Source of the DNA: Alphaproteobacteria bacterium
Lineage (GTDB): Bacteria; Pseudomonadota; Alphaproteobacteria; 16-39-46
Direction of reading: 5' to 3'
Length of the DNA: 64,000 nucleotides
NCBI GenBank assembly: GCA_018401675.1
Contig: JAGYKM010000001.1
Coordinates: 105,695 to 169,694 of the forward strand
Shown in pieces: positions 1,161 through 41,395 of the stretch; the stretch's first letter is position 1; each line of letters begins with the position of its first letter. A program made the translations under genes and the position numbers. A model generated the notes under the pieces. It saw only the letters and a list, made by a program, of their open reading frames with translations. It was not told the DNA's origin and ran no database searches.

Positions 1161-2540
1161 TTAGATTGTATCTGAAGATGTGATAGCACCAACTTCCGCA
1201 TCAATGAATTCTATGAGGATTGAGGTGGGACCTTGGTCTAAGAGTGTGGAGGCTCGAAGAATGGGCTTTGATGTGTGGGCATCTTTTACTAACGCAAAAC
1301 CTTTGCGTAGAATTTTTGAATAGGACGCCGCTTCGAGTAATAAATGTTGTTGTTTGAGGGTGAGCTCGACGACCTGTATGCGCTGTCTTAGGGCACGGAG
1401 GACTCGATCCAGCAGACTCTGAGCATAGCTATTTCCCTCGTGAATTCTGTTTAGGGGGAATCTAAAGCGTTGAAGAGTAGTAAGGAGAGAAATCCTGAGG
1501 AGCGATAACTTTTTTTGCAGACCAGATCTTAACGCATCTGTTAAATCATCAAGCCGCTGAACTTTTGGTTCAAAAAGCCTTAAGGGATTTTTTAGTTTAT
1601 CATTTGTTTTGGCAAAAGTTAGGTGCGCTCGCTGAAGAACATGGTGACTATGGAGAACGAGCAAACGTTGCTTTTCAAGAAGAGCCTCAAAAAGATCTTG
1701 ACGCACAGGGACAACCATTTCAGCTGCTCCGGTAGGAGTCGGTGCTCTTAAATCAGAAACAAAATCTAAAAGAGACGTATCAGTTTCATGACCGATAGCG
1801 GATATGACGGGAATAGTACAAGAGAAAACCTCACGAATAAGAGCTTCATCGTTGAAAGCCCATAAATCTTCTATGCTGCCCCCACCGCGGGCTATAATAA
1901 TGACATCCGGTCGAGGAATAGGGCTGGACGCAGTGAGTGATTCAAATCCCCTTAGAGCGCGAATGATGGATGGGGGAGCGCCCTCTCCTTGGACAGCTAC
2001 GGGCCACAATAATACATGGCGAGGAAAGCGTGCTCGAAGACGGTGAAGAATATCTTGAATCACAGCGCCAGTAGGGGAGGTGATAATACCAATAGTGTTG
2101 GGTATAAAGGGCAAGGATCGTTTATGTTCTTGGCCGAAGAGCCCTTCAGCTCTCAGACGCTCTTTGCGCTCTTGTAATAGTTTAAGTAAGGACCCCTCCC
2201 CAAAGACTTGAGTTTTTTCGACGATTAACTGGTATTGAGAGCGTCCCGGATAAGTGGTTAGGCGTCCCGAGGCAATGATTTCCAAGCCCTCTTCCAAAAT
2301 TACCGATCCACTAGAAACAGTGCCGCGCCAACAGACAGCAGATAAAAGAGTGTCTCCCTCTTTTAAGGAGAAATAAACATGGCCCGAGGTGTGTTTTTTT
2401 AGTCCCGTAATTTCTCCACGTATGCCAATCCCTGAAAAGGTCGTTTCAATTGTTTGTTTTAAGGCCCTGGAAAACTGAGAGACCGTCAGAACAACCGGGG
2501 TATTTGTGGGATAGGAAGGAGAGGCAGAAGAATAGGTCAT
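1161..2540 (-). CDS. xseA: Exodeoxyribonuclease VII large subunit
   Basis: 459 aa. The N-terminal OB-fold 'VSQFSRALKQTIETTF...GEITGLKKHTSGHVYFSLKEGDTLLSAVCWRG' is the canonical XseA signature, followed by the catalytic core and a C-terminal coiled region. Confidence 0.85.
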   Translation of the reverse strand: MTYSSASPSYPTNTPVVLTVSQFSRALKQTIETTFSGIGIRGEITGLKKHTSGHVYFSLKEGDTLLSAVCWRGTVSSGSVILEEGLEIIASGRLTTYPGRSQYQLIVEKTQVFGEGSLLKLLQERKERLRAEGLFGQEHKRSLPFIPNTIGIITSPTGAVIQDILHRLRARFPRHVLLWPVAVQGEGAPPSIIRALRGFESLTASSPIPRPDVIIIARGGGSIEDLWAFNDEALIREVFSCTIPVISAIGHETDTSLLDFVSDLRAPTPTGAAEMVVPVRQDLFEALLEKQRLLVLHSHHVLQRAHLTFAKTNDKLKNPLRLFEPKVQRLDDLTDALRSGLQKKLSLLRISLLTTLQRFRFPLNRIHEGNSYAQSLLDRVLRALRQRIQVVELTLKQQHLLLEAASYSKILRKGFALVKDAHTSKPILRASTLLDQGPTSILIEFIDAEVGAITSSDTI

Positions 2541-2585
2541 GACCGTTCCCTTATATTAAAATGGAAAGTTAAGGGTGCGTAGGGG

Positions 2586-4024
2586 CTATTTTTTTTTATT
2601 TTTTGGTTTTGCGGGACCAAATACCGGACTCCGGTAGTTCCATATTAAACCAAAGAAAAAGGCGCTCATAAGCGAAGAAACAGCAAAAACTATAAAAGCA
2701 GCATCCCATCCCCAATGATCCACAATGATGCCGATGCCCACACCAGCTACACCGGCCCCAATATAACCAAAGGTTCCTGTAAGTCCATTTGCGGCTCCAG
2801 CGGCTTTTTTAGAAGCAAAATCTGCTGCTGCAACGCCTTGAAGGATTTGGGGGCCACTAACAAAAAAGCCTATCATTATCATAACAAAGGAACTTTGGAA
2901 ATTTGAACCAGAGGGAATTTGCCATAGATAGATTAAGAAAAGCATCAAGATAACCATAAAGACCATGGCAATAGGTCCGCGACGTCCTTTGAACGCGCGA
3001 TCTGATAAAGACCCAGCTACAATGCCTCCAAAGATGGCGGCAACATCAAAGCCAACAGTTTGCCAGGACGCACCCACCAAGGTGCTTCCTTTATTTTCTA
3101 TAAGAAAAGTAGGGGCCCAAGTTAAAAGACCAAAACGTAAGACATAAAAAAACATATTGGCCCAGCACATGTACCATACCAGTTTGTTTTTTAGGACACG
3201 ATCGACAAGAATCTCTCTTAAAGAAAGGGTCTGATCGCTCTCTTCTTGGATTACTAAAGAGGCGGATTTCTTTTCTTTATGTTCTTCAATGGACGGAAGC
3301 CCCAGAGATTCAGGGGTATCGCGCAAGCGGTTGTACAAAGCCAAGGCCAAAAAGACCGTAATAATACCTGGCACCCAAAAGGCGCTACGCCAACCCCATT
3401 CTACAATGAGGTATCCGCCGCCTACGGTTACAAGGGCAGCACCTATTTGATGAGAGGAATTCCAAATGGCCCACTTTGTGGCAATCTCTTTGGGATGAAA
3501 CCAGTGGGTAAGCAGTCTTTGACACGGGGGAGCCCCCATAGACTGAAAACACGCATTCAAGGCCCAGAAGAGAAAAATAAATAAATATTAGATATAAACC
3601 CCGTGGCGAAACACACAAAGGCCGACAGACATAAGCCTAGGGACATGAAATAACGGGCATTAGATCGGTCGCTGAAGGTGCCGCTAATAGCTTTTCCAAG
3701 GCCATATATAAAGGCAAATGAACTTCCTATCATCCCTAACTGAGCTTTGGAATAGCCGAATTCCAAACTCATTTGAGGCAGGGCAATGGCTAAGTTCTGG
3801 CGCACCAGATAAAAGGCAGCGTATCCGAACATTAAAGAGTAAAGGATGCGAAAACGCCAATAGCGAAAGGATTTCGATACCGAAGGAGAAGATCCTTGAG
3901 ACTGGGTCACGGGGTTTACAGTAGATAACGGACGGTGACCTGACTCACCAGATGCTCTCATGCCTATTCCTTTCTTGTAAAGTTGAAGTACTGATAGAGG
4001 ATTCTTTGCCAAAAAGCAATTCAA
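2586..4024 (-). pseudogene. GlpT/UhpC-family organophosphate:phosphate antiporter (MFS), interrupted by a frameshift near nt 3557-3575
   Basis: Two adjacent ORFs (3557..4024 and 2586..3560) together align along the full GlpT/UhpC length ('FGYAAFYLVRQNLAIALP', 'SMGAPPCQRLLTHWF', 'DTPESLGLPSIEE'). The junction lies in a T-rich run (sense 'tatttatttattttt'). Confidence 0.7.
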
Positions 4025-4722
4025 ATTACCATGGATAAGGGTTGGTATAGGTCAATTCCCAAAGGAGAGACTTGGCATTTATAGGCACAGGATTCCACAC
4101 CGAGAGATCTGGCTTTTAAAAAACGTATTTTGTACTCGGGGTCAATATCATCATTAAGGGTAAAGGAGGTGACGTCGCTGCGTTGCACTACGAAAACCAT
4201 CATGCTTCTGGCGCCAGAAGCTTTTAGGGTGATTAATTCGTCAAGGTGCTTTCTGCCTCGAGTCGTAGGAGAGTCAGGAAAGGCAGCGTGCTCCTTCCAT
4301 TTCATCTGTACGGATTTGACCTCGACATAACAAGGAGGCAAGCTATCATTTTGTAATTTGAAGTCGAGCCGACTACGGCTAGAAACTTTGGGCTCTCTAT
4401 GGATAAGAGTATATCCTGTTAAAGAAGCAATTCGGTCTTTTAAAAGAGCCTCATAGACTAGTTCATTAGGCAAATGGGTATTAATACCTACTATAGTTTC
4501 TTCTTCTTGCGAGAGCTCCCAGGTGTATGAAAGTTTGCGAGTGGGAGAAGGCGCGTGGCGTACCCAAACGGGCGTCCCTGGCAAGGTGACCCCAAGCATA
4601 GCCCCTGGATTAGGGCAGTGAGCGGTAACCATTTCTCCGGTGGACAGAATTTGAATATCGGCAAGGAAACGCTTATAGCGTTTGATGAGGCGTCCTTGAA
4701 TGAGTATAGAAGGGTAGATCAT
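4021..4722 (-). CDS. sfsA: Sugar fermentation stimulation protein SfsA family
   Basis: 233 aa with 'GRLIKRYKRFLADIQ...HCPNPGAM...YVEVK', typical of SfsA. The start overlaps the glpT/uhpC stop (ATGA). Confidence 0.7.
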   Translation of the reverse strand: MIYPSILIQGRLIKRYKRFLADIQILSTGEMVTAHCPNPGAMLGVTLPGTPVWVRHAPSPTRKLSYTWELSQEEETIVGINTHLPNELVYEALLKDRIASLTGYTLIHREPKVSSRSRLDFKLQNDSLPPCYVEVKSVQMKWKEHAAFPDSPTTRGRKHLDELITLKASGARSMMVFVVQRSDVTSFTLNDDIDPEYKIRFLKARSLGVESCAYKCQVSPLGIDLYQPLSMVI

Positions 4723-4825
4723 TGAAGAGGTCCCTAAGGTGTGAAAGATTTTGTGGGTGACGTACCTCTAAAGAGATACACCTTGACAGGGTTATGAAAC
4801 CTAGGTAGCACAAAAGGAACGGTCT

Positions 4826-4911
4826 GCCCAGGTGGCGGAATGGTAGACGCGCTAGATTCAGGTTCTAGTGAGCTTTAGCTTGTGGAAGTTCGAGTCTTCT
4901 CCTGGGCACCA
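4826..4911 (+). tRNA. tRNA-Leu (anticodon CAG) with long variable arm
   Basis: Sequence gcccaggtggcggaatggtagacgcgctagattCAGgttctag...gttcgagtcttctcctgggcacca. It has a 7-bp acceptor stem, D and T arms, a long extra arm, and an encoded CCA. Confidence 0.85.
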
Positions 4912-4971
4912 TTACTTTTAAGATCGCGCTAGGAACGCCATCACTTAAAGTCTACAAGTCTACGCTCAATT

Positions 4972-5631
4972 ATGGTCTGCAAAGAGAGTTTCCGTATAAT
5001 GAAAATTGAAATCTATCAAAATGATCTTCCTGACAATCACCCTTTTTTGGATCCAAGTTTCTCAAAAGAACTGGCTATAGATACAGAAACTATGGGGTTA
5101 GTGAGTGGGCGCGACCGATTATGCTTGGTTCAACTCTCTGCAGGAGATGGAGGGGCTGTCTTAATTCAATATAAAACACGAGAGCAAGGAGTTGGTCTCA
5201 ATTTGCAAAAGATCCTTCAAGATGAAACCAGGGGAAAAATTTTTCATTTTGCTCGTTTTGACTTACTCGCCCTTCAAACACATTTTAATGTGCCTATAAG
5301 GGGACCTCTATTTTGCACAAAAATGGCTTCTAAAATAGCCCGCACTTCTACTGATAAACATGGATTAAAAGATTTATCAAAATCTTTACTGGATATCGAC
5401 TTGCGCAAAGAGCAGCAAGGTACAGATTGGGGTTCGGATATTTTATCCGAGGAGCAAAAAAACTACGCGGCTAATGATGTGATTTACCTCCACGATTTAA
5501 AAGAGAAACTCACGGTTCTCCTTAAAAGAGAGCATCGTTGGGAAATAGCACAGAAGCTCTTTTCTTTTTTGCCTTTGCTTCTCGAGTTAGATCGCTTAGG
5601 ATTCAAAGCGGAAGAGATTTTATCTCATTAG
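4972..5631 (+). CDS. 3'-5' exonuclease, RNase D-like (DEDDy family), short form
   Basis: 'IDTETMGLVSGRDRLCLVQLS...ANDVIYLHDL' matches the Exo I-III motifs of the RNase D / 3'-5' exonuclease domain. Confidence 0.65.
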   Translation: MVCKESFRIMKIEIYQNDLPDNHPFLDPSFSKELAIDTETMGLVSGRDRLCLVQLSAGDGGAVLIQYKTREQGVGLNLQKILQDETRGKIFHFARFDLLALQTHFNVPIRGPLFCTKMASKIARTSTDKHGLKDLSKSLLDIDLRKEQQGTDWGSDILSEEQKNYAANDVIYLHDLKEKLTVLLKREHRWEIAQKLFSFLPLLLELDRLGFKAEEILSH

Positions 5632-5682: not shown

Positions 5683-6687
5683 ATGAATGAGCACACTAAT
5701 AGTACACCCTTACTGGATAGAGAAGAGAAAGAGGTTTTTGATGACCTTGGAGTGGCCCGTGCTGTATTTTCAAAAGAAATGGAAGGTCTTCAGAAAGTTT
5801 ATGCCACACTAGATCATTCTTTTGAGCAAGTGATTTCTTTACTCTATAAGCTAGAAGGTCGCGTCATAGTAAGTGGGATGGGAAAGAGTGGCCACGTGGC
5901 ACGAAAGATCGCGGCAACCCTTTCTTCCACTGGAACACCGGCTTTTTTCGTTCATCCAGGCGAGGCAAGCCATGGGGATTTAGGGATGATAACCCGTCAA
6001 GATTGTATTATCGCCCTCTCGAACTCGGGAAAAACCAAAGAACTTATTGATCTCTTGGAATATGCCCGTAGATCCCGTATCCCTTTAGTGGCTATCACCC
6101 AAAATGAAGATAGCCTTTTAGCGCAGGCTTCTACCATTTCTCTTATATTGCCTCCTTTTGAAGAGGCTTGCCCCAATCATTTGGCCCCAACTACGTCTAC
6201 TACTATAATGATGGTATTGGGGGATGCTATCGCCCTCGCTTTGCTGGTGCGTCAGGGGTTTTCTGCTCATGATTTTAGACGTTTTCATCCAGGGGGAGAA
6301 CTGGGTCGGAAGGTGCTTCAGGCAAGAGATCTGATGCATACTGGCCCCATGATTCCCTTGGTAGACACTAAGATGAAAATTCAAGAAGCCCTACCTTTGA
6401 TGACAGAAAAAAAATTCGGATGTTTGGGTGTGGTCAAGGGTAAAGAGCTGATTGGTGTTATTACCGATGGAGATCTTCGGAGACATTTGGTATTGGGGTT
6501 CTTTGATAAAACCGTAGATGATATTATGACTGCTGGAGGGCAAACCCTAAAGGAGAATGATCTTGCTGTGGACGCATTAGCCTGTATGCAAGAAAAAGGC
6601 ATAACGTCTTTGTTCGTGGTGAATGAAGCCCGGATTCCCGTTGGAATTTTGAATATTCATGACTGTTTGCGATCTGGTCTTATATGA
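5683..6687 (+). CDS. kdsD: Arabinose-5-phosphate isomerase (SIS + tandem CBS), KdsD/KpsF
   Basis: 334 aa with 'GRVIVSGMGKSGHVARKIAATLSSTGTPAFFVHPGEASHGDLGM' (SIS) and C-terminal CBS pairs. The conserved kdsD-lptC-lptA-lptB context follows. Confidence 0.85.
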   Translation: MNEHTNSTPLLDREEKEVFDDLGVARAVFSKEMEGLQKVYATLDHSFEQVISLLYKLEGRVIVSGMGKSGHVARKIAATLSSTGTPAFFVHPGEASHGDLGMITRQDCIIALSNSGKTKELIDLLEYARRSRIPLVAITQNEDSLLAQASTISLILPPFEEACPNHLAPTTSTTIMMVLGDAIALALLVRQGFSAHDFRRFHPGGELGRKVLQARDLMHTGPMIPLVDTKMKIQEALPLMTEKKFGCLGVVKGKELIGVITDGDLRRHLVLGFFDKTVDDIMTAGGQTLKENDLAVDALACMQEKGITSLFVVNEARIPVGILNIHDCLRSGLI

Positions 6688-6714
6688 TATAAAAAGCTGT
6701 GAAGAAAGGGTGTT

Positions 6715-7392
6715 TTGGTGTCAAAAACCTATTTCCATATAAAAAACAATGCGGTAAGGGCGAAAGATATTTTTACCTATCACCGCAAGATGAAGAGATT
6801 GAAGGGCGCATTCTTTCTTGTTGCCGTATTAGGCGGGGCTATTTTTTTGTTTTTTCCCATGGGTGTTAAAAATTTACATTGGATTAAAAAAAAAGAGACG
6901 GCCGTGGAAAGCATTGTGCCTTCGAAGCATGCTCTTACAATGAAAGAGACTCAAGATTTCCAGAAAGAAATGCTTTCGCCGGTATTTACGGGTAAAGATG
7001 CTCAGGATCGACCATTTAAAATCTCAGCCGACTATGCCAAAGAAGAACAAGACGGTGATGTGGACCTCATAGCGCCCAAAGGTGATCTAGATTTGGGAGG
7101 GGGAAATTCATTTACCGTCCGTGCTCTTAAGGGGAAATTTACGAATCATAGAAAAAAATTACAATTAGAAGGTCAAGTTGTCGTGACTTACGGTGATTGT
7201 GCGCTTGAAACTCCTGCAGCTGAGGCAAATCTTTCGTCAGGAGAGGCTAAAGGAGACCTTGAGGTGCGTACCCTTTGTCCTGGGGTTCAAATCCAAGCTA
7301 CAGGATTTACCATGGATAAAGCCAAGGGTACTTTCACCTACGCAGGCAGGCCTCGTGTCCTTTTCACCAAAAGTCCTACTCCATCCTTATAA
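6715..7392 (+). CDS. lptC: LptC-like LPS export protein (N-terminal TM anchor). The start is uncertain and may be the Met at ~6790
   Basis: Position between kdsD and lptA. It has a single N-terminal TM ('AFFLVAVLGGAIFLFF') followed by a periplasmic beta-jellyroll-like region. Sequence similarity is weak. Confidence 0.45.
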   Translation: MVSKTYFHIKNNAVRAKDIFTYHRKMKRLKGAFFLVAVLGGAIFLFFPMGVKNLHWIKKKETAVESIVPSKHALTMKETQDFQKEMLSPVFTGKDAQDRPFKISADYAKEEQDGDVDLIAPKGDLDLGGGNSFTVRALKGKFTNHRKKLQLEGQVVVTYGDCALETPAAEANLSSGEAKGDLEVRTLCPGVQIQATGFTMDKAKGTFTYAGRPRVLFTKSPTPSL

Positions 7393-7409: not shown

Positions 7410-8312
7410 ATGTTTTTTTTGCCCTCCTTTATACGTTATAACCAATGGATTCTTGGGGTTGTTTCTTGTCTGGTGGCGATCGTTTCGGTTTTGGGAGGAG
7501 CAGAAGGTATTGATCAAGGGCCCATTGAACTCGTAGCTGATGAGCTAAGGTACGAGGCTGGAGATGAAAAAGTCTTTGCGGAAGGGAATGTAGAGGTCAA
7601 GAAGGGAGAGGCTACCTTGAAGGCCAACAGACTTATTGGTTTAGTCCATAAATCAGCCAAGTTACCGTCTGAGTCCAATTTGGAGGGGAGAATGGAACTT
7701 AGAAAAATAGAAGCTTTTGGGCAAGTACGGTACAGTGCGCCACGCGAAATGGCCAGCGGAGCCCAGGCAACTTACGATACCGAGCGTGATATTCTGGTTC
7801 TTAAGGGAAATCCCGCTGAAGTGACCATGGGAGAGTCAACGTTGAGAGGAGATATTATTGAATTTGATAGGTCGGCTTACACGGTAGTATCTACCCATAA
7901 TGTGGTTCTTTCCGAGCCGGGTCAAATTCTAAAAGCTCAAAGAATAGTCGCGCATTTTAAAGAACAAAAGGACTCTGACGCGCTGGAACAAAAAACACCT
8001 AAGGATAAAAGTAAACTGGTGCTTAAGTATGCCGATGCCGAAGGAGGGGTAGAGATCATAGCGCCTCCTTACAAAGGAGAGGCGGAGACGGCAAGAGTTC
8101 TTGGGGATACCATAACTTTTCAAGGCAAGGTGCGCATAGCTCAAGGTCAGAGTTTGGTGGTGGGAGATTGTGGATGGTACCAAATGAAGGAAAAAACTGG
8201 AGGGGTGCGTCAGTGCCCAACAGATTGCGGGGCTAAGTTAGCCGCCTCAAAGCGAGTGCGCGCACTTTTTTATGCAAAAAAGATGGATTTTAGAAAAAGG
8301 AAGGCTCTTTAG
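7410..8312 (+). CDS. lptA: LptA/OstA-like periplasmic LPS transport protein with a C-terminal extension
   Basis: Signal-like N-terminus and an OstA-type repeat region ('LKANRLIGL...GNVEVKKGE'). It lies immediately upstream of lptB with a 1-nt gap. Confidence 0.55.
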   Translation: MFFLPSFIRYNQWILGVVSCLVAIVSVLGGAEGIDQGPIELVADELRYEAGDEKVFAEGNVEVKKGEATLKANRLIGLVHKSAKLPSESNLEGRMELRKIEAFGQVRYSAPREMASGAQATYDTERDILVLKGNPAEVTMGESTLRGDIIEFDRSAYTVVSTHNVVLSEPGQILKAQRIVAHFKEQKDSDALEQKTPKDKSKLVLKYADAEGGVEIIAPPYKGEAETARVLGDTITFQGKVRIAQGQSLVVGDCGWYQMKEKTGGVRQCPTDCGAKLAASKRVRALFYAKKMDFRKRKAL

Positions 8313-9512: not shown

Positions 9513-12236
<2,724 letters not shown>

Positions 12237-12342
12237 CTTTTTAGCGTACAGAAATAAATCTCTATACTCATTAATTAAGTACAGCCTCATAATCTTACAT
12301 ATTTCTCTTTCTTAGGCAAAGATACAGAATGCTTTAGAATGA

Positions 12343-12458
12343 CTTGGTGGTTTTAGCGAGGGTGTCACACACGATCCCATACCGAACTCGACAGTGAAAC
12401 CCCTCAGCGCCAATGGTACTATGTCTTAAGGCATGGGAGAGTAGGTCGCTGCCAGGTC
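12343..12458 (+). rRNA. rrf: 5S ribosomal RNA
   Basis: 'cttggtggttttagcgagggtgtcacacacgatcccataccgaactcg...gcatgggagagtaggtcgctgccaggtc' is a canonical 5S. It is flanked by a 12-bp perfect inverted repeat (aatgctttagaa / ttctaaagcatt) and then a T9 run. Confidence 0.95.
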
Positions 12459-24829: not shown

Positions 24830-27202
24830 ATGCAAGCTGTGAATAAAATAGTAAAGATGCTCTTAAGTGTATGCGTGGTTTTCCTAATGGCATCGACCAT
24901 GGTCATGGGGATGCATCAAAGAGGCGGCATGACATTGGATGACGACAGAAGGCCCAGTGAGCATCTGTGTCCTATTACCCTTAACGTGATGAGAGACCCG
25001 GTTGTTGCCGCGGATGGACACTCCTATGAAAGAACTTCTATTGTGGAACAATTTAAACGTAGGGTCCAGAGTCCCATGACAGGCTTGCCCATAACCAGGC
25101 ACCTTTTTGATAATAATGCCCTACGAACAATGATTAGAGAATGGCAAGCGGGTAGGCAAAGTGAGCCTTGTGAGCTAGACACACGAGAGGCAAGCAGCAT
25201 AGCTCAACGGGTCAAAGATGAGTTTGAAAGACATGCGTATCTTTTAACCTCAGAGAAAGGTGCTTTAGGGCAGCATATTGTTGCTTTTTTAGGCAATACG
25301 GGAGCAGGCAAGAGTACCTTAATCAATTTTCTGGCTGGAAAAGCACTTAAGGTAGGTGACTATGGGGAGGATTACGTCTTAAGAGATAGTGGGGACACAA
25401 CAGCCATGATCATTGGACAAGGAGGAAGATCAGAAACCCTTTATCCAAAGTCTATTGATGTGGGAGAACTGCGATTTTTTGATCTTCCGGGGTTTAATGA
25501 CACCGATGGATCAGAGCGGAACTTAGTCAATGCAGCCTTTATTAGGAAGATTCTTTTGGATGCAGAATCGGTACGTTTTGTTTTTGTTGCGGGACAAGAT
25601 CAGTTTACGTCGGATCGGAGTGCTTCTATAAGAAAGATGTTTCAGTCCATTAATCGTCTATTTGTGGGAGAAGAAGAGATCAATTTTACGGATAATGGAA
25701 TATTTGTTGCGACAAAAGTGACTTGTGCTGCGGATAGGGACATAATCCCCTTTTTGTTAAGAAAAACAGATTCTTCTGACAAAGAAGAGCTGCAAGAGCA
25801 GTTGGATGCTTGGTCGAATAACGACAAAATAGGTCGTATGTTTCATCCTTTGCTTGGCGCATCCAATGAAGCCATGGGCGATGAGATCCTAAGACGCATC
25901 CGAAACGTGAGACCAGTGAAGGTTCGAGGCGTTAATGTAAGTGCTCTGTATCCACCCGAAACAAAAACAGCTTTAGAAAGAATGTTTTCGAGTATGATGG
26001 AAGGCGCGTTAGAACAGAAGAGAGCAGCCCCTTTAGAAACACTCAGTCAGTACAACGAAGCCATAAGAGAATACAGAGACGAAAGATTTTGGGAACTGTT
26101 GGATGCTGATCTTTGCGTGAAGGAGCAGGCTATGAGATTGCTGAAAGAGTTTTGCATTACGCCTTACACTAAAGCCCTTAAAGATTTTGAAAAAAACGAG
26201 GCAATAAGGCATCAAGCGCACATTCAGAATCTGGAAGAGAAGAAGCAAGCTCGGGTGAGCGATATTGAGGATAGAACGGAAGAGAGAGCCAAGAGGGTTA
26301 TTGCTTCCATATTTCCAAGACCACAAGGAGAAGATGTTGTGCCTTTTGATTTTGCCTATCACAAAGACTACTACGAAGGGGTATGTGGATCAGTATCAAT
26401 CACCCAGCTGGCTACTGATGCCACGGAACAAGAGCTCGTGAGACAGCATTATGCCGGTGTCATCAGTCGTCATAGTCACGACCAGATGATGCGTTGGCAG
26501 GAAAGATTTAGTGGGGTTGCGGAGCTATTCAGGGAAGTTGCCCAAATGAAAAAGGAATTAGAAGCCTTGCGTGGAGAAAAGGCTGAAGGTGCCACGCTTG
26601 TGGCGCAACCTGAGAGGGTATCGATCCCAGAAGTTGCTTTGGGACACGAAGCGGTTTACGAAAGATTTTTAAAAGGAGTCTTGGTTTATCGCCCAAACCC
26701 AAACAGCGATGAGGGAAAAATAGAGCTCCCTATTGCCGCGTTAGAAAATCCCCTTGAGGGCACCTTTGATTTATCTAACTGTGGTGATGCGGGACAGTAC
26801 TTAAGTATAGCGACAGGGTATCGCAAGTATGTTAATGCTGAAAATGCCAAGAAGGTTGAAATCTGGATCGCACCGAGATTTTTGATAGAAAAGGACATAA
26901 GAGGACCGGCCCGACATCTAGCACCTATCATGGGGGCGTGGGATAAGACTACCGTCCCGGTTGGCCTTTTCTTCAATTGGGGAGGATGGAATGAAATGGA
27001 TTCTTTTGATTATGCCGTCACCCACACGCGCAAGAAGCTATGTAGCATGCATATGCACAGCGTGTATGCATCAGCTTCCGGCGCAGGATTAAACGGGCAT
27101 AAGCCACAAAACAGTTACATCTGTATGGCAAAAGAGTCGAGGTGCCCGGTATGCGTCGTGGCGGAGGTTGGTCATCCAGATCATTTCATGTTTCGTTTAT
27201 GA
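24830..27202 (+). CDS. Chimeric U-box (E3 ubiquitin-ligase fold) + P-loop GTPase (AIG1/GIMAP-/MMR_HSR1-like) protein with a coiled-coil and unknown C-terminal domain; candidate secreted effector
   Basis: U-box: 'CPITLNVMRDPVVAADGHSYERTSIVEQF...LPITRHLFDNNALRTMIREW' aligns motif-for-motif with eukaryotic U-boxes (CPISLELMRDPV..GQTYER.SI..W...P.T...L.PN..LR.LI..W). GTPase: G1 'GNTGAGKST', G3 'DLPGFND'. The N-terminus is hydrophobic. Confidence 0.8.
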   Translation: MQAVNKIVKMLLSVCVVFLMASTMVMGMHQRGGMTLDDDRRPSEHLCPITLNVMRDPVVAADGHSYERTSIVEQFKRRVQSPMTGLPITRHLFDNNALRTMIREWQAGRQSEPCELDTREASSIAQRVKDEFERHAYLLTSEKGALGQHIVAFLGNTGAGKSTLINFLAGKALKVGDYGEDYVLRDSGDTTAMIIGQGGRSETLYPKSIDVGELRFFDLPGFNDTDGSERNLVNAAFIRKILLDAESVRFVFVAGQDQFTSDRSASIRKMFQSINRLFVGEEEINFTDNGIFVATKVTCAADRDIIPFLLRKTDSSDKEELQEQLDAWSNNDKIGRMFHPLLGASNEAMGDEILRRIRNVRPVKVRGVNVSALYPPETKTALERMFSSMMEGALEQKRAAPLETLSQYNEAIREYRDERFWELLDADLCVKEQAMRLLKEFCITPYTKALKDFEKNEAIRHQAHIQNLEEKKQARVSDIEDRTEERAKRVIASIFPRPQGEDVVPFDFAYHKDYYEGVCGSVSITQLATDATEQELVRQHYAGVISRHSHDQMMRWQERFSGVAELFREVAQMKKELEALRGEKAEGATLVAQPERVSIPEVALGHEAVYERFLKGVLVYRPNPNSDEGKIELPIAALENPLEGTFDLSNCGDAGQYLSIATGYRKYVNAENAKKVEIWIAPRFLIEKDIRGPARHLAPIMGAWDKTTVPVGLFFNWGGWNEMDSFDYAVTHTRKKLCSMHMHSVYASASGAGLNGHKPQNSYICMAKESRCPVCVVAEVGHPDHFMFRL

Positions 27203-27215
27203 ACTAAAAAAATGA

Positions 27216-28152
27216 TTAAACAAGTGACCCAGCAGCCACGCATGGACCCAGACTCCAACATGAAAAGAGACTGGGCAGAGACGTTTGCACACAAGATGCA
27301 AACGTCTCGATCGATGATAATCCTAATTTCAGCCAGCGTGTCCATTGATCGATGTACCGACGCAACCGCTTTGTTTTATCAAGGTCAGAAGAAGCCTGTG
27401 CGCGCAACGATAGGAGAAGGTTTTTAAAATAGTCATCACAAGGAGGGGCTTCGTTCACTTGATATAAAGATATATCCCGTGTTTCTGCTTTTTTTTGATA
27501 GCGACGGGAATTGGTCTTCCTGGGCGGGCGCTCATAAAGCGCGCTGGCACGTTCGTGAAAACGCCTGATAGTTTCTTTGGCAAGGAGTATTTTTTTGTGC
27601 TCAAAGTAATAAGCTAAAAAGGTAAAGCCTTGGCTTATTTTTCCAATGTAAGTTTTTGAGGAGTGAAGGTGTAGTTTTAGTTCTGCAATAATCTTATGGG
27701 TACGTCTAACAACCTTACGCAAAGCGGTTTTACTTTTGGCAAAAACCACCCAATCATCCATAAAACGGGAATAAAAAACCATCTTGAATTGTCCCCATGG
27801 CTTGATCAAGAGGCATTAAGTCGATAGCACCAAGCAAGGGAGATCAAGGACTCCCCATAGGAATGCCTTTTTCAAGATAGTCATAGAAAATGCCGCCATA
27901 GGTTTTCGTACGATGGCATGCTTTGCTAATAAGGCTTAAAAGAGCAGGATTCTTAATGTAAGATTCAAGAATGCCCATTAAAACGTCAAAGTTAATGGAG
28001 TCATAGTACCCTTTAATATCACTCCGCATCACGTAATGATAATTAGGTAAAGCCCTATGAGTATCGTGATTACACATTATGGCCTTTGATATGATAACAG
28101 GATTATGGAATATGGTGGCCCATTTGAGATTCAATGGCTTGGGTGATGAGCT
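27216..28152 (-). pseudogene. Degenerate reverse transcriptase (group II intron / retron-like RT), 5'-truncated and frameshifted; retroelement remnant
   Basis: Two out-of-frame ORFs carry RT motif 3 'SDIKGYYDSINFDVLM', motif 4 'GIPMGSP', motif 5 'RFMDDWVVF' (YADD-type) and motif 6/7 'LHLHSSKTYI...GFTFLAY'. The N-terminal motifs 0-2 are absent or degenerate, and no intron domain V was found. Confidence 0.6.
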
Positions 28153-28765
28153 TTAAGGTAATCATATCTTATGAAGCCCAAAGAGAGATAATAGCGTCTT
28201 CTAACACGTAGAGATTAAGAGCGCTAAATTGATACGTTCCCTCATTGAGTTAGCTGAGCATGATGGGTTTGATTTCATTCCAGCCGTGGCGAAGATGCCA
28301 AATATCCGAATTGGGGCCGTGTTTTTTACGAAGAGATACAATCCACAGGTAAGCACGATCCATAGCATCTAGGGTATGTAATAAGGGTTATTTGACAAGG
28401 TGTTATTAATCTCCCTATAAGAGCAGTTAATGGGCATATTAGACAAAGTAATCTCGGTCCGAGGAAATAATCTATGTCAGAATGCATTTGTTTGAAGGCA
28501 AAAGTGAATATATGGATGAAAAAAGAGCAGAACATCCAAGAGGTTGTCTTGCGATCCCAATAAGGTTTAAACTTTGTCGGGTGGTAAGGTGGCTTATAGG
28601 AGAAAGCCCCAAGGGGCTTGGTTTGTTAAGTGTCAGGCTAAAGAACCAAGGCCAAAAAGGCTTTTTTGAGACTAGAAAGTCTGATAATGTTAAAAAGAAT
28701 AAGAATTCCTTGAAAACTCAGGGGGGGTAAGAACCATAATAAACAGTGAGAACGGGAGACTGAAA

Positions 28766-29506
28766 ATGAGAATTTTGTCTTTAAATAAAAGCGTATCGAT
28801 GAGCATCCTAGGGGCCTTAATTCTGGGGGGTGCCTTGACAACACCACTTTTTGCAAAAGAGTATACTCTAAAAAACTCCCAAGTGGTGAGCCAAGGCCCG
28901 GTCTCTAAGTATTTTCCTCATTTTACGGCAAACACGGCAGCCTCCACGCCTTTGAAACAAGTCGAGGAGTGGGCAAGCGCTTACGAAGCTTTTTACCGGA
29001 AAAATAAAGGAAAAGTAGCGCCAGGGGGGCACTGTGTATCTCTTGGTACCTACGATAATAAGACTGGTGATGTATTTCAAAGTACTGTGTATATCAAGGA
29101 GATTACAAAAGAGGGGGTTGTTTTCGAGTCTCGTCCTAACACTCAAAAGGTACGCAATGCAACGGCTCATCCCAAAGCCAGTATGCTTTTTCTAGTAGCC
29201 TATCCTGATCGGGCAGAGCAAGTTGAATTCAGAGGTGTGGTGGAGCCCGTAGAAGATACTAACACAGATGCTCGATCTGATAGAAAAAATATGTGGAAGC
29301 GTTATATTCTTAAGCCAAGAATGGCAACTGTGGCATTGGTTAAATTCTATGATCTAGGGACTGAGGGCAGCATTCTTCCTATTGTGGACAGGGTGTCTTT
29401 TGCCTTGGGAAAAGATGGAAAGTGGGCTAAGAAAAGTCAACCTCCGTATTATGGTGGAAATGATCTTTTGGAAAAGATAGAAAAAGAGCACGATCCTAGA
29501 GGCTAG
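28766..29506 (+). CDS. Secreted PNPOx-like (pyridoxamine-5'-phosphate-oxidase/general-stress-protein-26-like) FMN-binding split-barrel protein
   Basis: Signal peptide 'MRILSLNKSVSMSILGALILGGALTTPLFA'. The core 'ATAHPKASMLFLVAYPDRAEQVEFRGVVEPVED...KNMWKRY' resembles the PNPOx-like fold. Confidence 0.4.
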   Translation: MRILSLNKSVSMSILGALILGGALTTPLFAKEYTLKNSQVVSQGPVSKYFPHFTANTAASTPLKQVEEWASAYEAFYRKNKGKVAPGGHCVSLGTYDNKTGDVFQSTVYIKEITKEGVVFESRPNTQKVRNATAHPKASMLFLVAYPDRAEQVEFRGVVEPVEDTNTDARSDRKNMWKRYILKPRMATVALVKFYDLGTEGSILPIVDRVSFALGKDGKWAKKSQPPYYGGNDLLEKIEKEHDPRG

Positions 29507-35090: not shown

Positions 35091-36332
35091 TTACTTATCA
35101 CCACCCACTGGGGTTTTTCCAGAAAACTTTTGTTCCAGCTTTTGGAGGAGCCTTTCCGTTTCAGCATTGCTCGACGGAGTGCGCTTCGGTGCCGATAAAG
35201 TTGCTGATAACGGAACACGGGCATGGTTTTTTTGAAGCCCTATTCCTGGACGCCTCTTGCCCTTAGTGCCTGTATTGGTAGGAGAGAGAGGCAGACTCCT
35301 TGATAGCTGATCTGAAGAATAATCGGAGATCCCTTGAGCGTCAGGAGCGAGTTCCGCTTTTGCCGGTTCTTCATCCCTAGCTATTGTACTTTCCTGTTGT
35401 GTTATTCCAGATGCTTCTTCTGACAGGGGCACCACAGGCAAGGCTCTTTGAGGAAATCTTCTGGCAGTCGGTATATTGGCGTAAGCTACTTTAAATGTCT
35501 CAAAAGACTGCAAATCCTGATCTGAATAGGGAAATCCTGTTTCTTGAGATCCTAGATAGATAGGCCCCTTTACGTCTTCATCAAAATGCTCTCCCAGAGC
35601 GGCATAAAGTTTGCTAAGAGCGGGCTTAGCTTGATCCCAGATGGCAAAAAGTTCAGGATCAGATGTGGGAAAAAGAACCTTGGGGTTTTTTAAAGTGGTA
35701 AATCGGTATCCTAACCCAGCGCTTTCAAAGAGATCAGGTTTTTCTACCAGTAATCGACTTAACCGGACAGGGCCATAAGCCTCAGCTAAGCTGCTAAAGT
35801 AATCACTCTTGAGTCCTTGCTCTGGGGCCTCTAGTGAAGCATCCAATTCTTCGGTCAAAGCACTAGAGGCGAGAGCGGAATAGTGAGCCTGGCGTGAGGC
35901 AGAAAATTTTTGCTCCAAGCGGCGCCCGTTACTGTCTCCATATAGCCATGAAGCGTTATAAGGGATCACACCTGATGATTTTTGGAGGCGTGATTCAAAG
36001 GTGTCTCTAATCTCTGAAAGCGTGGTTCGCGCTTCTTGAGAGAGGGGTTGAGTTTCTGTATGCTTATCTATGAGGCCAGAAAAGAGAGAGATTTGATTAA
36101 GAAATAGTAAATCTTCACCGATATCGCTAATGCTTTGTATGTGCTTTGTATGTGCGGCATCATTGGCTTCAACTACTTGAGGGGCTGGTAGAGCCTTTGC
36201 AACTCTTTCTGCACCAGGGTCTTCTGGATTTACTTGCGGTTTGACTGCCATAAGAGGGTTTCCAGTCAAAGACAAAACAAGTGCAGCGAAAGAAAGAGAG
36301 GGTGTATATATTCGAGATGATTTGTTATTCAT
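35091..36332 (-). CDS. Secreted hypothetical protein (413 aa; signal peptide, Pro/Ser-rich C-terminus); candidate surface or effector protein
   Basis: N-terminus 'MNNKSSRIYTPSLSFAALVLSLTGNPLMA'. No recognisable domain. It contains an 11-bp tandem duplication at 36131-36152. Confidence 0.4.
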   Translation of the reverse strand: MNNKSSRIYTPSLSFAALVLSLTGNPLMAVKPQVNPEDPGAERVAKALPAPQVVEANDAAHTKHIQSISDIGEDLLFLNQISLFSGLIDKHTETQPLSQEARTTLSEIRDTFESRLQKSSGVIPYNASWLYGDSNGRRLEQKFSASRQAHYSALASSALTEELDASLEAPEQGLKSDYFSSLAEAYGPVRLSRLLVEKPDLFESAGLGYRFTTLKNPKVLFPTSDPELFAIWDQAKPALSKLYAALGEHFDEDVKGPIYLGSQETGFPYSDQDLQSFETFKVAYANIPTARRFPQRALPVVPLSEEASGITQQESTIARDEEPAKAELAPDAQGISDYSSDQLSRSLPLSPTNTGTKGKRRPGIGLQKNHARVPLSATLSAPKRTPSSNAETERLLQKLEQKFSGKTPVGGDK

Positions 36333-39490: not shown

Positions 39491-41395
39491 ATGGTTTTGA
39501 GGTATGGTGATGGATTATCGCGTAGAGGAGTAGGGTATAGGCTGTTTGGCCTGGCCGTAGGAATAGGTTTTTGTTTTCCTAAGATCAGTCTGGCCACTCC
39601 CCAAGCTTCTTACTATGAAACCAGACCCATTATGATTCCTGTTTCCACTTCTTTTATAGAGTCTGAAAGTGCCTCTCTTCCTGTTCCCGGAACGAATAAT
39701 AATCCCCTGTATCCCTTAAGTCTATTTGAAGCTCTTCAAGTGAGCCCGGAGTTGTCCGCCGTTAAAACGGCAGGTACTGAAAAAGTACTTTTTCCTGGCG
39801 CACCCTCGGGGGGCAGTTTGGTGGTCTGGGAAGGGGTGGTTCTCAATGATCCATCCACGGTTCGAGGTTCTTTTGATTTTTCCCTACTAAAAGGAGCTTC
39901 TTTTCAGACAGTGAATCTTGAGAGAGGAACAAATCCACTGGTGACCACGGCGGCTATGGGGGGTATTATGACTTTGGAAACTCCCGAGAGACTGTTCCTT
40001 GCCCAGAAAATGGATAGTTCTTCTTTTGTAGGTCAAGGCGACTTGGATTCTATGGGAGGAAGATTTGTTCAGTTAACTCAATTTGTGCCTTTTTCTCAAG
40101 GTGCTTTATATCTTGGAGGTTCCTTTTCCGACACACCTAGATCCCCTGTGGGGACAGCCCCTTTACGAAAACAGTCTCGGAGGAAGGATGAATCTTTATC
40201 CCTTACAGGAAATTATGGATCTGTGGATAAGACCCAATTGGTTTTTCTATGCCGAACCGCTGATGAAAAATTTGATGATGTCTATGATTCCCAAGGTACT
40301 TTCCAAGGTGCTTCTCACTACCTTATTGGTCGTTTAAAGAATCTTTCCCAGGATGGACGGACACGCTCAAGCATGTCGATTGGGCAAATTATGTATGATC
40401 GAAGGGCTTATCATCAAAGTCAAACTCTTTCGAAATATAAAGGTATGAGTCAAACTCTGAAGGTAGATAGCACTCATATTGTGCAAAAAGGGATTCAACT
40501 TCAAGGGGGAATTGAAACTGAAAGGGAATCAGCTAAAGATTATGGCTTCTCAGAAGTGAGGGATACTATAAGCCTTTTTATGGGGCCCAAAGTGAGGTTT
40601 CACGAATATTGGACAAGTGAAGGGTCAATCAGAGTGAATCAAGGTCCCCATGATACCCTAATGGGTATTATGACGGGTGTTGGTTACCAGAGAAAGGGTG
40701 ATGGGTTCTTTATTAAAGCAGATGTGGCCCAAAAAAGACCTAGCCTTTATTATCTGCATGCACAAGACTATTCTTTACCTCAATTTGGGACCTTGCCTCA
40801 GATTTCTTATCCTGTAGGTAACGCGTCTTTAAAAAAGGAGTCCTCTTGGGGGGTACTGACTCGGGTGAGCAAAGGCTACTGGGAAGGCCAAATGGTAGGG
40901 GGGTTCGAGATTTTTTACAGAAAATTTGAGAACTATATTTATCCTACAGCAACCATTCCGCGGACCTATACGCAAGGTGGTGGGGCAAGCACCTGGGGAT
41001 TTGGGCCTAAAGTACAGATTGGAACTCACTCAATTCGGTTTTTGAGTCAAATTCAGTGGTTTCAGGTGTCTCATAGCTCTCAAGTACCGGACTTAGTTTT
41101 GAGTCCAGCTCATGCTCAGGCTCTCAATCAGCTCTCTTATGACTCTCCAGACACGACCTCTCCAAAGTTCGGAGGAATCGTGTCTATTACCACTCACTAT
41201 AAACCCTATTCGACTGTGGGCCAAACGAAGAGCTATTCATTAGTGACCATGGGGATGCACTATGGCATTCAAGAGAATATCCTTGGATTTGTGCGTGTGA
41301 ACAATCTTCTGAATAAACGGATTCAAGACCCCTATGATTCTCTCTTGGAATTGGATCCTTTTAGTTTTAGGGTAGGTATCAAGATAGAACTCTAA
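39491..41395 (+). CDS. Large hypothetical outer-membrane/beta-barrel-like protein (634 aa), uncharacterised
   Basis: N-terminal hydrophobic signal 'LFGLAVGIGFCFPKISLA' and alternating amphipathic beta-strand-like segments toward the C-terminus. There is no TonB box and the protein does not end in a terminal Phe/Trp. Confidence 0.3.
   Translation: MVLRYGDGLSRRGVGYRLFGLAVGIGFCFPKISLATPQASYYETRPIMIPVSTSFIESESASLPVPGTNNNPLYPLSLFEALQVSPELSAVKTAGTEKVLFPGAPSGGSLVVWEGVVLNDPSTVRGSFDFSLLKGASFQTVNLERGTNPLVTTAAMGGIMTLETPERLFLAQKMDSSSFVGQGDLDSMGGRFVQLTQFVPFSQGALYLGGSFSDTPRSPVGTAPLRKQSRRKDESLSLTGNYGSVDKTQLVFLCRTADEKFDDVYDSQGTFQGASHYLIGRLKNLSQDGRTRSSMSIGQIMYDRRAYHQSQTLSKYKGMSQTLKVDSTHIVQKGIQLQGGIETERESAKDYGFSEVRDTISLFMGPKVRFHEYWTSEGSIRVNQGPHDTLMGIMTGVGYQRKGDGFFIKADVAQKRPSLYYLHAQDYSLPQFGTLPQISYPVGNASLKKESSWGVLTRVSKGYWEGQMVGGFEIFYRKFENYIYPTATIPRTYTQGGGASTWGFGPKVQIGTHSIRFLSQIQWFQVSHSSQVPDLVLSPAHAQALNQLSYDSPDTTSPKFGGIVSITTHYKPYSTVGQTKSYSLVTMGMHYGIQENILGFVRVNNLLNKRIQDPYDSLLELDPFSFRVGIKIEL

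Follow-up and report, generated by a model that had tools for sequence, protein, structure and literature searches.

What is the broken reverse transcriptase (RT) gene that faces an intact effector gene, 3′ end to 3′ end, in the genome of an alphaproteobacterium, and does it stand there by accident? The stretch of DNA in question, hereafter the window, comprises 64,000 nucleotides (nt) of Alphaproteobacteria bacterium (GTDB lineage Bacteria; Pseudomonadota; Alphaproteobacteria; 16-39-46; GenBank assembly GCA_018401675.1, contig JAGYKM010000001.1, positions 105,695–169,694 of the forward strand), and positions given without a locus name count from its first letter. By comparing the window with related loci we found that its RT gene is almost certainly a dead but full-length member of a divergent UG4 branch, that its relatives adjoin convergent effector genes in the same tail-to-tail arrangement, and that the effector genes of these relatives carry a hypervariable stretch (VR) next to the junction. 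We suggest that the locus is a decayed RT–effector cassette and that the RT of such cassettes makes or remodels the C-terminal tail of the effector; this is the best explanation overall and, in our judgement, the probable one.

The reverse transcriptase gene and its class

The first-pass annotation of the window had placed a 5′-truncated RT remnant at 27216–28152, with motifs 3–7 split over two frames and motifs 0–2 missing. The motifs DIKGYYD, GIPMGSP, RFMDDWVVF, and GFTFLAY are indeed found in the minus-strand open reading frames (ORFs) 27844–28134 and 27216–27809. They are not spurious matches, as the scores against the Pfam family RVT_1 (E = 2.4e-17), the PADLOC profile RT_UG4 (E = 4e-75) and intact homologues (to E = 4e-187, 76% identity, 98% coverage) are far beyond chance. 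The 5′ end, however, is not missing. A third frame, 28079–28363, encodes the N-terminal 95 residues of the RT with motifs 0–2 and a start codon at 28363 (three-frame translation and tblastn), and tblastn with the intact homologue P0001 yields three collinear segments in three frames, covering residues 1–95, 103–204, and 194–382. The UG4-like pseudogene is thus carried by three frames and spans 27216–28363 on the minus strand, from the ATG at 28363–28361 to the stop codon at 27218–27216, as delimited by tblastn, the RT_UG4 profile and nucleotide alignment. The N-terminal frame translates as MDRAYLWIVSLRKKHGPNSDIWHLRHGWNEIKPIMLS*LNEGTYQFSALNLYVLEDAIISLWAS*DMITLKLITQAIESQMGHHIP*SCYHIKGH (asterisks denote stop codons) and reads, with its ATG start, MDRAYLWIV...DIWHLRHGWNEIKPIMLS*LNEGTYQF...LWAS*DMITLKLI...IP*SCYHIKGH.

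The lesions were mapped by nucleotide alignment to the closest intact gene, that of locus L001 (86% identity), and amount to six: four premature stops, one deletion (11 nt) and one insertion (1 nt), all given here by their positions on the minus strand. Three of the stops replace glutamine codons in the N-terminal frame, CAA(Gln38)>TAA at 28250–28252, CAA(Gln65)>TAA at 28169–28171, and CAA(Gln87)>TAA at 28103–28105, and the fourth, TTA(Leu177)>TGA at 27844–27846, lies in RT motif 4 (GSP*SPLL). The deletion at 28070–28079, which is also apparent by tblastn, shifts the frame and removes the GGLKKAV of the homologues; the insertion at 27780 is the second frameshift and lies directly ahead of motif 5. 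All motifs are still recognisable, the YxDD box being kept as FMDD, but the ORF is broken. The ORFs neighbouring the pseudogene are all intact. As no single correction restores the RT frame amid these intact neighbours, the gene is a genuine pseudogene, and the proposal that a live element would reappear once a sequencing error is corrected can be dismissed. Taking identity and pseudogene status together, we have hardly any doubt that the window RT is a full-length pseudogene of a divergent UG4 branch. The three N-terminal nonsense codons are all CAA>TAA transitions at glutamine, a pattern expected of AT-biased mutation in a reduced genome rather than of sequencing error. A reassignment of stop codons is unlikely because two frameshifts are present as well.

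The annotation had left open whether the RT derives from a group II intron, a retron or a defence-associated RT. For classification the translations of the three frames were joined into a reconstructed protein, in which RVT_1 is the sole Pfam domain. This protein matches RT_UG4 with 250.7 bits over profile positions 5–305 of 307; intact members of the clade score 287–309 bits and canonical plasmid UG4 RTs 431–452 bits. The runner-up is UG17 with 112 bits, and across the clade UG17 and UG18 reach at most 147 bits. The clade and the plasmid UG4 RTs are ~30–33% identical over residues 1–290. Among 158 database proteins found in a homologue search, the best are intact, have 385–420 aa and only the RVT_1 domain, and are at most 76% identical over 98–100% of the query. 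By its profile scores the window RT is UG4-like, that is, a class 2 UG/Abi RT, of a divergent branch.

The other classes fare badly. The group II RT/maturase model TIGR04416 reaches 95.9 bits against a cut-off of 300 and only in the palm region, and a Rfam scan of the whole window found 23S rRNA, 5S rRNA and two tRNAs only, with no group II intron family at the gathering threshold. A permissive scan of 26900–28900 (E ≤ 10) likewise gave nothing credible and no group II intron RNA, in line with the earlier failure to see a domain V in the flanks. A group II intron RT is thereby ruled out. So is a retron: the retron models give at most 45 bits (best St85, cut-off 235; all retron cut-offs are at least 235), and the supposedly non-coding stretch 28135–28765, in which an msr/msd-like RNA had been envisaged, is RT coding sequence up to 28363 by tblastn. 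Only the remainder, 28364–28765 (minus strand), is intergenic as stated. This stretch 5′ of the gene, its former leader or promoter, has no Rfam match at E ≤ 10, folds no better than shuffled sequences (z = −1.5) and lacks a long inverted repeat, so that at most a highly divergent msr might lie there; only its last ~90 nt align to L001 and L002, and conservation across the clade is poor. The curated Drt2–5 models, too, stay far under threshold. As to a diversity-generating retroelement (DGR), the repeat search between the effector 3′ end and the flanks confirmed that the window has no pair of template and variable repeats, and the same was true of the intact loci L001, L004, and L005; UG4 is the best profile by a wide margin among the libraries used, which disposes of this class too. 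No small accessory gene is conserved beside the RT in L003–L005, and no Avd-like gene was noticed.

UG4 has been described as a class 2 UG/Abi group of plasmid-borne RTs with no extra domain, one subgroup of which lies beside fimbrial genes (PMC9226505). Mestre et al. (2022) saw no enrichment in defence islands and predicted a role outside defence (PMC9226505). UG4 was also the sole non-intron RT for which Simon and Zimmerly (2008) saw a hint of retromobility, namely two copies with a common 5′ flank of ~100 bp and unrelated 3′ flanks (PMC2602772).

The RT–effector cassette and its junction

The partner gene at 24830–27202 (plus strand) is intact and encodes 790 aa with a hydrophobic N-terminal leader, a U-box, a dynamin/MMR_HSR1-like GTPase, a conserved C-terminal domain (CTD; 26585–27067, plus strand) and a tail. 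Its stop codon (27200–27202) faces that of the RT (27216–27218), so the convergent arrangement seen in the first-pass annotation stands. The CTD, which is common to the convergent partners, belongs to no Pfam family, and its fold has no solved structural relative and hence gives no functional hint. In the AlphaFold model the CTD is confidently folded, residues 171–200, which correspond to the VR, have low confidence, and the residues encoded by the conserved element described below as the anchor form a terminal strand. The counterpart of the relatives' VR in the window is the tail at 27068–27184 (plus strand; 117 nt, 53% GC), to which the low model confidence applies; it has no similarity to any other tail.

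Relatives of the RT were sought in a scan of one genome per species. Close ones (53–70% identity) are present in metagenome-assembled genomes (MAGs) of Candidatus Finniella, in the complete genome of Candidatus Caedibacter acanthamoebae (CP008936) and in several MAGs of Alphaproteobacteria, a more distant one (44%) in Legionella yabuuchiae; intact copies occur in protist endosymbionts of the Holosporales type, and some genomes hold more than one copy. In 17 related loci the gene that converges on the RT encodes the same CTD of ~150 aa. These loci and the window together provide 18 junctions; in 16 of them the two stop codons are −7 to 15 nt apart (13 nt in the window), with L011 (45 nt) and L018 (105 nt) as outliers, and the RTs of the loci paired with this domain (CTD1) are ~53–76% identical. 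The N-termini of the partners differ, comprising a U-box and a dynamin-like GTPase in the window, L005, and L006, ankyrin, TIR and Sel1 in L004, and short putative secreted proteins elsewhere. The RTs of L009 and L014 have a partner with another C-terminal family and the same junction layout, and that of L017 (Legionella, 44% identical) faces a small putative secreted protein with the same succession of A-run, G and GC-rich sequence. That the partners are secreted is suggested by hydrophobic N-terminal leaders judged by eye, and their role as effectors is putative. The pairing of RT and effector is not accidental and the tail-to-tail arrangement is kept across the RT clade; we are confident that the two genes form a conserved cassette.

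In L017 (6849–7330 and 8010–8255) the convergent gene encodes 97 aa, and a G-rich stretch after GAAAAAG, GCGGAGGGGGGGAATACTAGGGCGGCGGTGGGTGGG, holds its stop codon; at a distance of 1 kb there is a paralogue with the same N-terminus.

On the RT strand the junction consists, in this order, of a GC-rich hairpin in the last RT codons, the RT stop codon, an anchor of 21–28 nt, the VR and a run of five to seven T. On the effector strand the last of these reads as five to seven A followed by G, and it is present for every partner family. The hairpin has 7–10 bp and a loop of 3–4 nt, lies inside the last ~45 nt of the RT ORF, and in most loci is 20–25 nt away from the nearest T-run. Its arms differ by lineage and stay complementary (CCCTGACG/CGTCAGGG, CCCAGACG/CGTCTGGG, CCATGGC/GCCATGG, CGGCGTGGC/GCCACGCCG, GCCGCGCCCA/TGGGCGCGGC, CCCGAGG/CCTCGGG). 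No consensus hairpin was obtained with MAFFT and RNAalifold, the arms being of unequal length and out of register; the hairpin was judged by a positional stability test, which replaced a weaker per-sequence stem test. Compared with 164 control windows taken from the RT gene of the same locus, the terminal hairpin is the most stable in 10 of the 16 loci and ranks within the top 5% in 13, whereas the copy in the window reaches only the top 10%. There, a weakened remnant, GTGGCT-GCTG-GGTCAC, is left at 27224–27239 on the minus strand (terminator-like scan and positional stability test).

The anchor, with the consensus T(T/C)AGTTCACAAACGAAACATGAAA, is conserved as DNA. In the window it lies at 27185–27205, reads AGTTCATAAACGAAACATGAA on the RT strand with one mismatch to the clade consensus in the 21-nt core, contains the stop codon of the effector and puts an end to each of its three reading frames. 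Depending on the locus it is read in all three frames, as FHVSFVN*, F[TM]FRL* (the window) or SxFVCELK*, each time as an alternating hydrophobic peptide followed by a stop. L077 and L082 are 99.7% identical up to the middle of the anchor and have unrelated effector cassettes beyond, so that the anchor is also a joint between modules.

A scan for the anchor pattern gave 15 metagenome matches, 10 of which are true cassettes; the other five and all three matches on viral contigs have neither RT nor CTD. Exact 21-nt matches of this kind (L054, L055, L056, L058, L061, and L074–L076, including a viral contig of 65 kb) are taken to be chance or unrelated occurrences. A protein-pattern scan of IMG/VR returned only a relative of 25% identity.

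With UG4 as described so far the clade shares its best and full-length profile match, the single-domain RT, the location on mobile elements outside defence islands, the multiple copies with differing 3′ flanks and the vicinity of genes for surface or secreted proteins. Unlike plasmid UG4 RTs it reaches about two thirds of their bit score, is ~80 residues longer at the C-terminus, lives in alphaproteobacterial endosymbionts and is paired with a CTD-bearing effector instead of fimbrial genes; the window copy, in addition, is a chromosomal pseudogene, and the junction of VR, anchor and hairpin has not been described for UG4. In the literature searched on UG4, on RTs of Holosporales and on RT-linked hypervariable tails we found no description of such an RT–effector junction.

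On Salmonella plasmids a canonical UG4 RT is convergent with the gene of an inverse-autotransporter adhesin and overlaps its 3′ end. These plasmids are of the IncF type, the adhesins are intimin/invasin-like, and the overlap is 19–99 nt (RT and adhesin at 3929–5035 and 5017–8894 in L065, and at 2630–3748 and 3650–6623 in L068). The similarity of the RTs ends abruptly ~117 nt before the annotated RT stop, and the C-terminal ~200 aa of the adhesin are highly diverged between plasmids that are otherwise 93–95% identical. This variability was rejected as a VR, as it is that of an ordinary diverged domain of 200 aa, and a tail-to-tail rule for all canonical UG4 RTs was dropped too, since it holds on the Salmonella plasmids and fails on those of Escherichia albertii.

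The hypervariable stretch and its possible origin

We collected 21 distinct VRs with lengths of 48–117 nt; the length modulo 3 is 0, 1, and 2 in 6, 9, and 6 of them. Their GC content is 63% compared to 45% in the adjacent CTD, and the composition of the effector strand is 38% G, 25% C, 19% A, and 18% T (27%, 18%, 29%, and 26% in the CTD). Off-frame stop codons are 2.6 times rarer in the VR than in the CTD, and translation of the effector runs through the VR into the anchor. As the VRs are no more structured than shuffled sequences (mean z −0.09), they are not terminator hairpins. A second copy of any of the 21 VRs was found in none of the loci examined, and comparison with the 23S rRNA, 5S rRNA and tRNA genes and with the remainder of the loci gave only chance matches of 12–18 nt, so that these were rejected as a source.

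Nearly identical copies can also differ in the VR. L016, from a MAG, and L063, from a different metagenome, share ~3 kb of identical sequence that is interrupted only by the VR. Its two versions measure 44 and 57 nt, and each effector uses another frame of the anchor for its end. L050 differs from L062 and L064 in the same way, with matching flanks, and between L057 and L062 the RT side is ~100% identical, the VR cannot be aligned and the sequence beyond it is 85–90% identical. At the protein level, three or four clusters formed at 90% identity have members that are at least 98% identical and carry two unrelated tails, for example, ...KKYQK-GARNLGWRFPAMYRPCGGVGSFQISFVN and ...KKYQK-ATDGPVGVVWLGGRGNFTFRL; further cases are the clusters of P0156 and P0134. 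In the pair P0126 and P0232 the difference is confined to the anchor-proximal part of the tail. A natural control is given by the CTD genes of L071 (Finniella inopinata) and L073, which have no RT, RT fragment or anchor nearby and whose tails are conserved among diverged orthologues.

How could such a stretch be made? We suggest that the RT would recognise the hairpin and anchor element and, acting in cis or in trans, would make or replace the VR by synthesising DNA without the use of a stored template. Priming would probably take place at a nick or break that adjoins either the anchor or the A-run, and the homopolymer run would be where the ends are rejoined. A start at the anchor is favoured by the C-rich RT strand and by the pair P0126/P0232, but the constant boundary of A-run and G would also fit an extension from the A-run. 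Whichever frame the VR leaves, the anchor ends the effector with a few hydrophobic, strand-like residues and a stop codon. By such synthesis the effector family would gain new C-terminal loops or tails, and RT-proximal modules could be joined to new effector cassettes at the anchor. For the specific claim that the RT makes the VR, its dependence on the RT and the mechanism included, we would go slightly short of an even chance. The wider proposal that UG4-type RTs in general are template-free diversity generators, which recognise hairpin and anchor at their own 3′ end and write random GC-rich DNA into the facing gene, is put forward tentatively and is rather unlikely to hold in this form.

Among known systems the cassette calls to mind the DGRs, for example, Brt, TR, VR, and Mtd of the Bordetella phage BPP-1, where TR is the template repeat and VR the variable repeat. 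DGR targets have an initiation of mutagenic homology (IMH) element plus a hairpin or cruciform. In both cases the gene that adjoins the RT with its 3′ end encodes a displayed or secreted protein, the variability falls in the last codons, and the systems are phage-borne; the conserved element and the short-loop GC hairpin just past the variable region are alike in layout only. The cassette differs in that it has no template repeat nearby, its variants change in length and frame, cannot be aligned and are not adenine-specific, and its RT matches UG4 best and not the DGR clade, with no Avd-like gene in evidence. Class 1 UG/Abi enzymes (AbiK, DRT4, DRT7) and the N-addition of terminal transferase offer another likeness, that of a polymerase writing random-looking DNA of biased composition. 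The N-regions of V(D)J joints, too, are GC-rich junctions of variable length that change the frame and diversify a displayed loop, which is a parallel in function and not a homology. The products of the class 1 enzymes, however, are free or protein-linked single-stranded DNA and not genomic insertions.

Several points weigh against our proposal. According to three reports, the characterised class 2 UG/Abi RTs copy a non-coding RNA (ncRNA) template and untemplated synthesis is a trait of class 1 (PMC13174585, PMC12783706, 10.64898/2026.02.16.706125). The main objection is that an untemplated product would be unexpected from a class 2 enzyme because this class copies ncRNA. We found no conserved ncRNA upstream of the RT, but the leaders are too divergent across the clade to be aligned, so that the test is not a strong one. 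Furthermore, there are only two tail alleles per protein cluster instead of a cloud of variants, an identical VR recurs in five samples of a plasmid-like element, one VR is rich in C rather than G when read on the effector strand, and enrichment in Gly, Arg and Ala is missing from many tails of the wider protein set. Gene conversion between tandem paralogous cassettes, which homogenises the flanks and halts at the unalignable VR, could mimic the observed pattern. On E. albertii plasmids the canonical UG4 RT is co-directional inside a fimbrial operon and not tail-to-tail.

Of the other explanations, the one that survives best regards the loci as scars of a retroelement. RT, hairpin and anchor would form the 3′ end of a mobile element whose target is an A/T run close to where genes for secreted proteins end and whose insertion proceeds by target-primed reverse transcription, the VR would be untemplated DNA added once per insertion, truncated RTs would be incomplete reverse transcripts and the window copy an old, decayed full-length insertion. 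Such an element would resemble the retrotransposons without long terminal repeats (non-LTR), whose copies also share their 3′ end, are truncated to variable extent at the 5′ end, form tandem arrays and have extra nucleotides at the 3′ junction; by functional analogy the 3′-terminal stem–loop could serve as the recognition site of the RT. In fact, many copies keep the RT 3′ end and lose 5′ parts of varying length, there are several copies per genome and tandem arrays, RT modules are joined to unrelated effector cassettes exactly at the anchor, and the hint of retromobility of 2008 concerned UG4 (PMC2602772). L016, with a truncated RT, and L063, with a full-length RT, differ both in truncation and in VR, as would independent insertions into the same target. 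Nevertheless, we found neither an endonuclease domain nor a target-site duplication nor a defined 5′ end; the cassette also differs from non-LTR retrotransposons in being bacterial, in having no poly(A) and in always ending inside the reading frame of one gene class. Every CTD gene seen ends in anchor-derived sequence, with no empty target among them, and the anchor, which gives a usable C-terminal strand and a stop codon in three frames, looks selected for the benefit of the effector. Furthermore, P0126 and P0232 differ only next to the anchor, which suggests rewriting in place, and the same truncation point, nt 599 of the RT, is found beside different upstream sequences. We consider insertion scars unlikely, though they are the strongest competitor.

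Somewhat less probable still is that the RT is not involved at all. The two genes would then be mere neighbours in prophage or plasmid cargo, the tail a fast-evolving or recombining linker, and anchor and hairpin a terminator between convergent genes. The hairpin of the window, followed by T-rich sequence, does score as terminator-like, the effectors are polymorphic, multi-copy and prone to recombination, and just two tail alleles per cluster would be in keeping with such a linker. A canonical terminator, however, does not have the geometry seen here, with the hairpin 20–25 nt from the T-run in most loci, and the tight junction persists over at least three unrelated partner C-termini at RT identities of 53–76% for CTD1 partners and 44% for L017. 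Nor would a linker of this kind be expected to defy alignment where the flanks of two copies are identical over ~3 kb, to be 18 points richer in GC than its surroundings and devoid of hairpin potential, and to use all three frames, each closed by the anchor, while orthologues without an RT keep conserved tails.

A defence-associated RT (DRT) module against phages, in which RT and an unrecognised ncRNA sense infection, the convergent TIR or GTPase protein is toxic and the window copy is dead, is very improbable. In its favour, the class 2 UG/Abi RTs studied so far (DRT2, DRT9, DRT10) are defence systems with upstream ncRNAs, intact copies of our clade lie in prophages by methyltransferase and specificity genes, one partner has a TIR domain and most loci have ~400 nt of non-coding DNA ahead of the RT, but UG4 has no defence-island enrichment and a predicted non-defence role (PMC9226505), the partners have hydrophobic leaders (signal peptides by eye) and eukaryote-type U-box, ankyrin and Sel1 domains typical of the host-directed effectors of intracellular bacteria, the hosts live as obligate endosymbionts, the leaders ahead of the RT lack conservation, and the hypervariable junction with its three-frame anchor would be left unexplained. 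DRT2, DRT9, and DRT10 (UG2, UG28, and UG17) share with the cassette the RT class, a sizeable non-coding leader and sometimes a partner effector (SLATT in DRT10); they copy a conserved ncRNA into repetitive or homopolymeric complementary DNA for abortive infection, whereas the cassette shows no conserved ncRNA, host-directed-looking partners and unique chromosomal variable DNA.

Decay, genomic setting and meaning of the cassette

Returning to the decayed RT–effector cassette as the preferred reading, the clade displays a series of stages, from intact RTs to frameshifted ones (L013, L021), copies with only the 3′ part and many different truncation points (L016, L019, L022, L026, L077), tandem arrays and finally CTD genes without RT. 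The tandem unit in L057, L060, and L062 consists of RT 3′ fragment, anchor, VR and effector. The window copy is an intermediate stage, its RT full length but dead, the anchor intact, the hairpin weakened and the effector ORF intact. The 'LYEKW' end of its CTD has diverged, and the GC content of its tail is below that of the relatives. We infer that it is a domesticated remnant in which the effector was kept with a frozen tail and the RT was lost.

The arrays lie at 1000–3874 in L057 and 1–3172 in L062 (both in reverse complement) and at 300–2200 in L060; their RT fragments differ in length, and one of them holds an inserted GC-rich palindromic element. The RT of L016 is truncated at nt 599, and L063 has, besides its full-length RT, a second copy that begins at nt 599 after a transposase. 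The sequences that adjoin this breakpoint are different (L016 805–2565 and 4171–5439; L063, reverse complement, 2285–3553 and 3673–3775). In L016 the truncated RT is abutted by a large ORF that we take, from reading its N-terminal sequence, to be serine-recombinase-like, and by the same kind of reading the transposase beyond the effector in L016 and L063 is presumably IS256-like.

The long contigs with intact RTs are prophage-like, with genes for terminase, lysozyme, RecT, YqaJ and methyltransferase, and one also has R-body genes. In L004 and L005 methyltransferase and specificity genes neighbour the intact RT. A contig of ~6.6 kb recurs in several samples, has repeated ends of the kind expected from a circle of ~6.3–6.4 kb and carries RPA, HU and HicAB genes; it looks like a small plasmid. 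On the phage-like contig L003 four RebB (R-body) genes and a DDE transposase (5952–7321) lie 3 kb from the intact RT, a set that recalls by analogy the R-body-bearing phages and plasmids of killer symbionts of the Caedibacter type. About 400 nt of non-coding DNA precede the RT in most loci. Just upstream of its start many intact loci have a poly-C tract of 6–12 C, at 7524–7551 in L004 and ~10–25 nt before a conserved CTCTTTACCATGGA at the RT start in L007, L009, L010, L012, L013, and L014. Neither the window nor L001 has this tract, whose proneness to slippage could let it act as a switch of RT expression. The RT leader of L006 contains, at ~880–980 (RT at 1153), ~12 tandem copies of the heptamer CTGCAAC.

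The pair in the window sits among core genes, with nusA, infB, truB, pnp and an NMO-family gene on one side and a PNPOx-like gene, hflK, hflC, degP, and miaA on the other. Elsewhere in the window, 9516–12457 holds the 23S and 5S rRNA genes (2723 nt match the 23S model of 2925 positions), and the part of the window upstream of them lacks a 16S gene; such an unlinked rRNA operon fits a genome of the Rickettsiales or Holosporales type. Two ORFs, 35091–36332 (minus strand, 413 aa) and 39491–41395 (plus strand, 634 aa), have no Pfam match at E ≤ 1e-5 and may be further lineage-specific or effector-type genes.

Dead as it is, the window copy is of little interest alone, but its relatives expose a conserved and undescribed RT–effector architecture. 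UG4 is among the few bacterial RT groups without a function, and the cassette provides the first functional lead; with ~2.5 kb it is small enough for direct testing. If the RT writes the VR, bacteria and phages would possess a novel means of varying the proteins that they direct at eukaryotic hosts, and the RT would be a novel kind of natural DNA writer. If this writing is template-free, it would be a second, mechanistically distinct mode of RT-based protein diversification beside the DGRs and the first function of a UG4 RT, and it would give the effectors of endosymbionts and phages, perhaps also plasmid adhesins, a hypervariable loop similar to an N-region. Should the loci be insertion scars instead, UG4 would be a bacterial retroelement that moves by a process like target-primed reverse transcription, which would also be new. 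The locus itself illustrates how such a cassette is domesticated in reduced genomes, the effector being retained and the RT lost.

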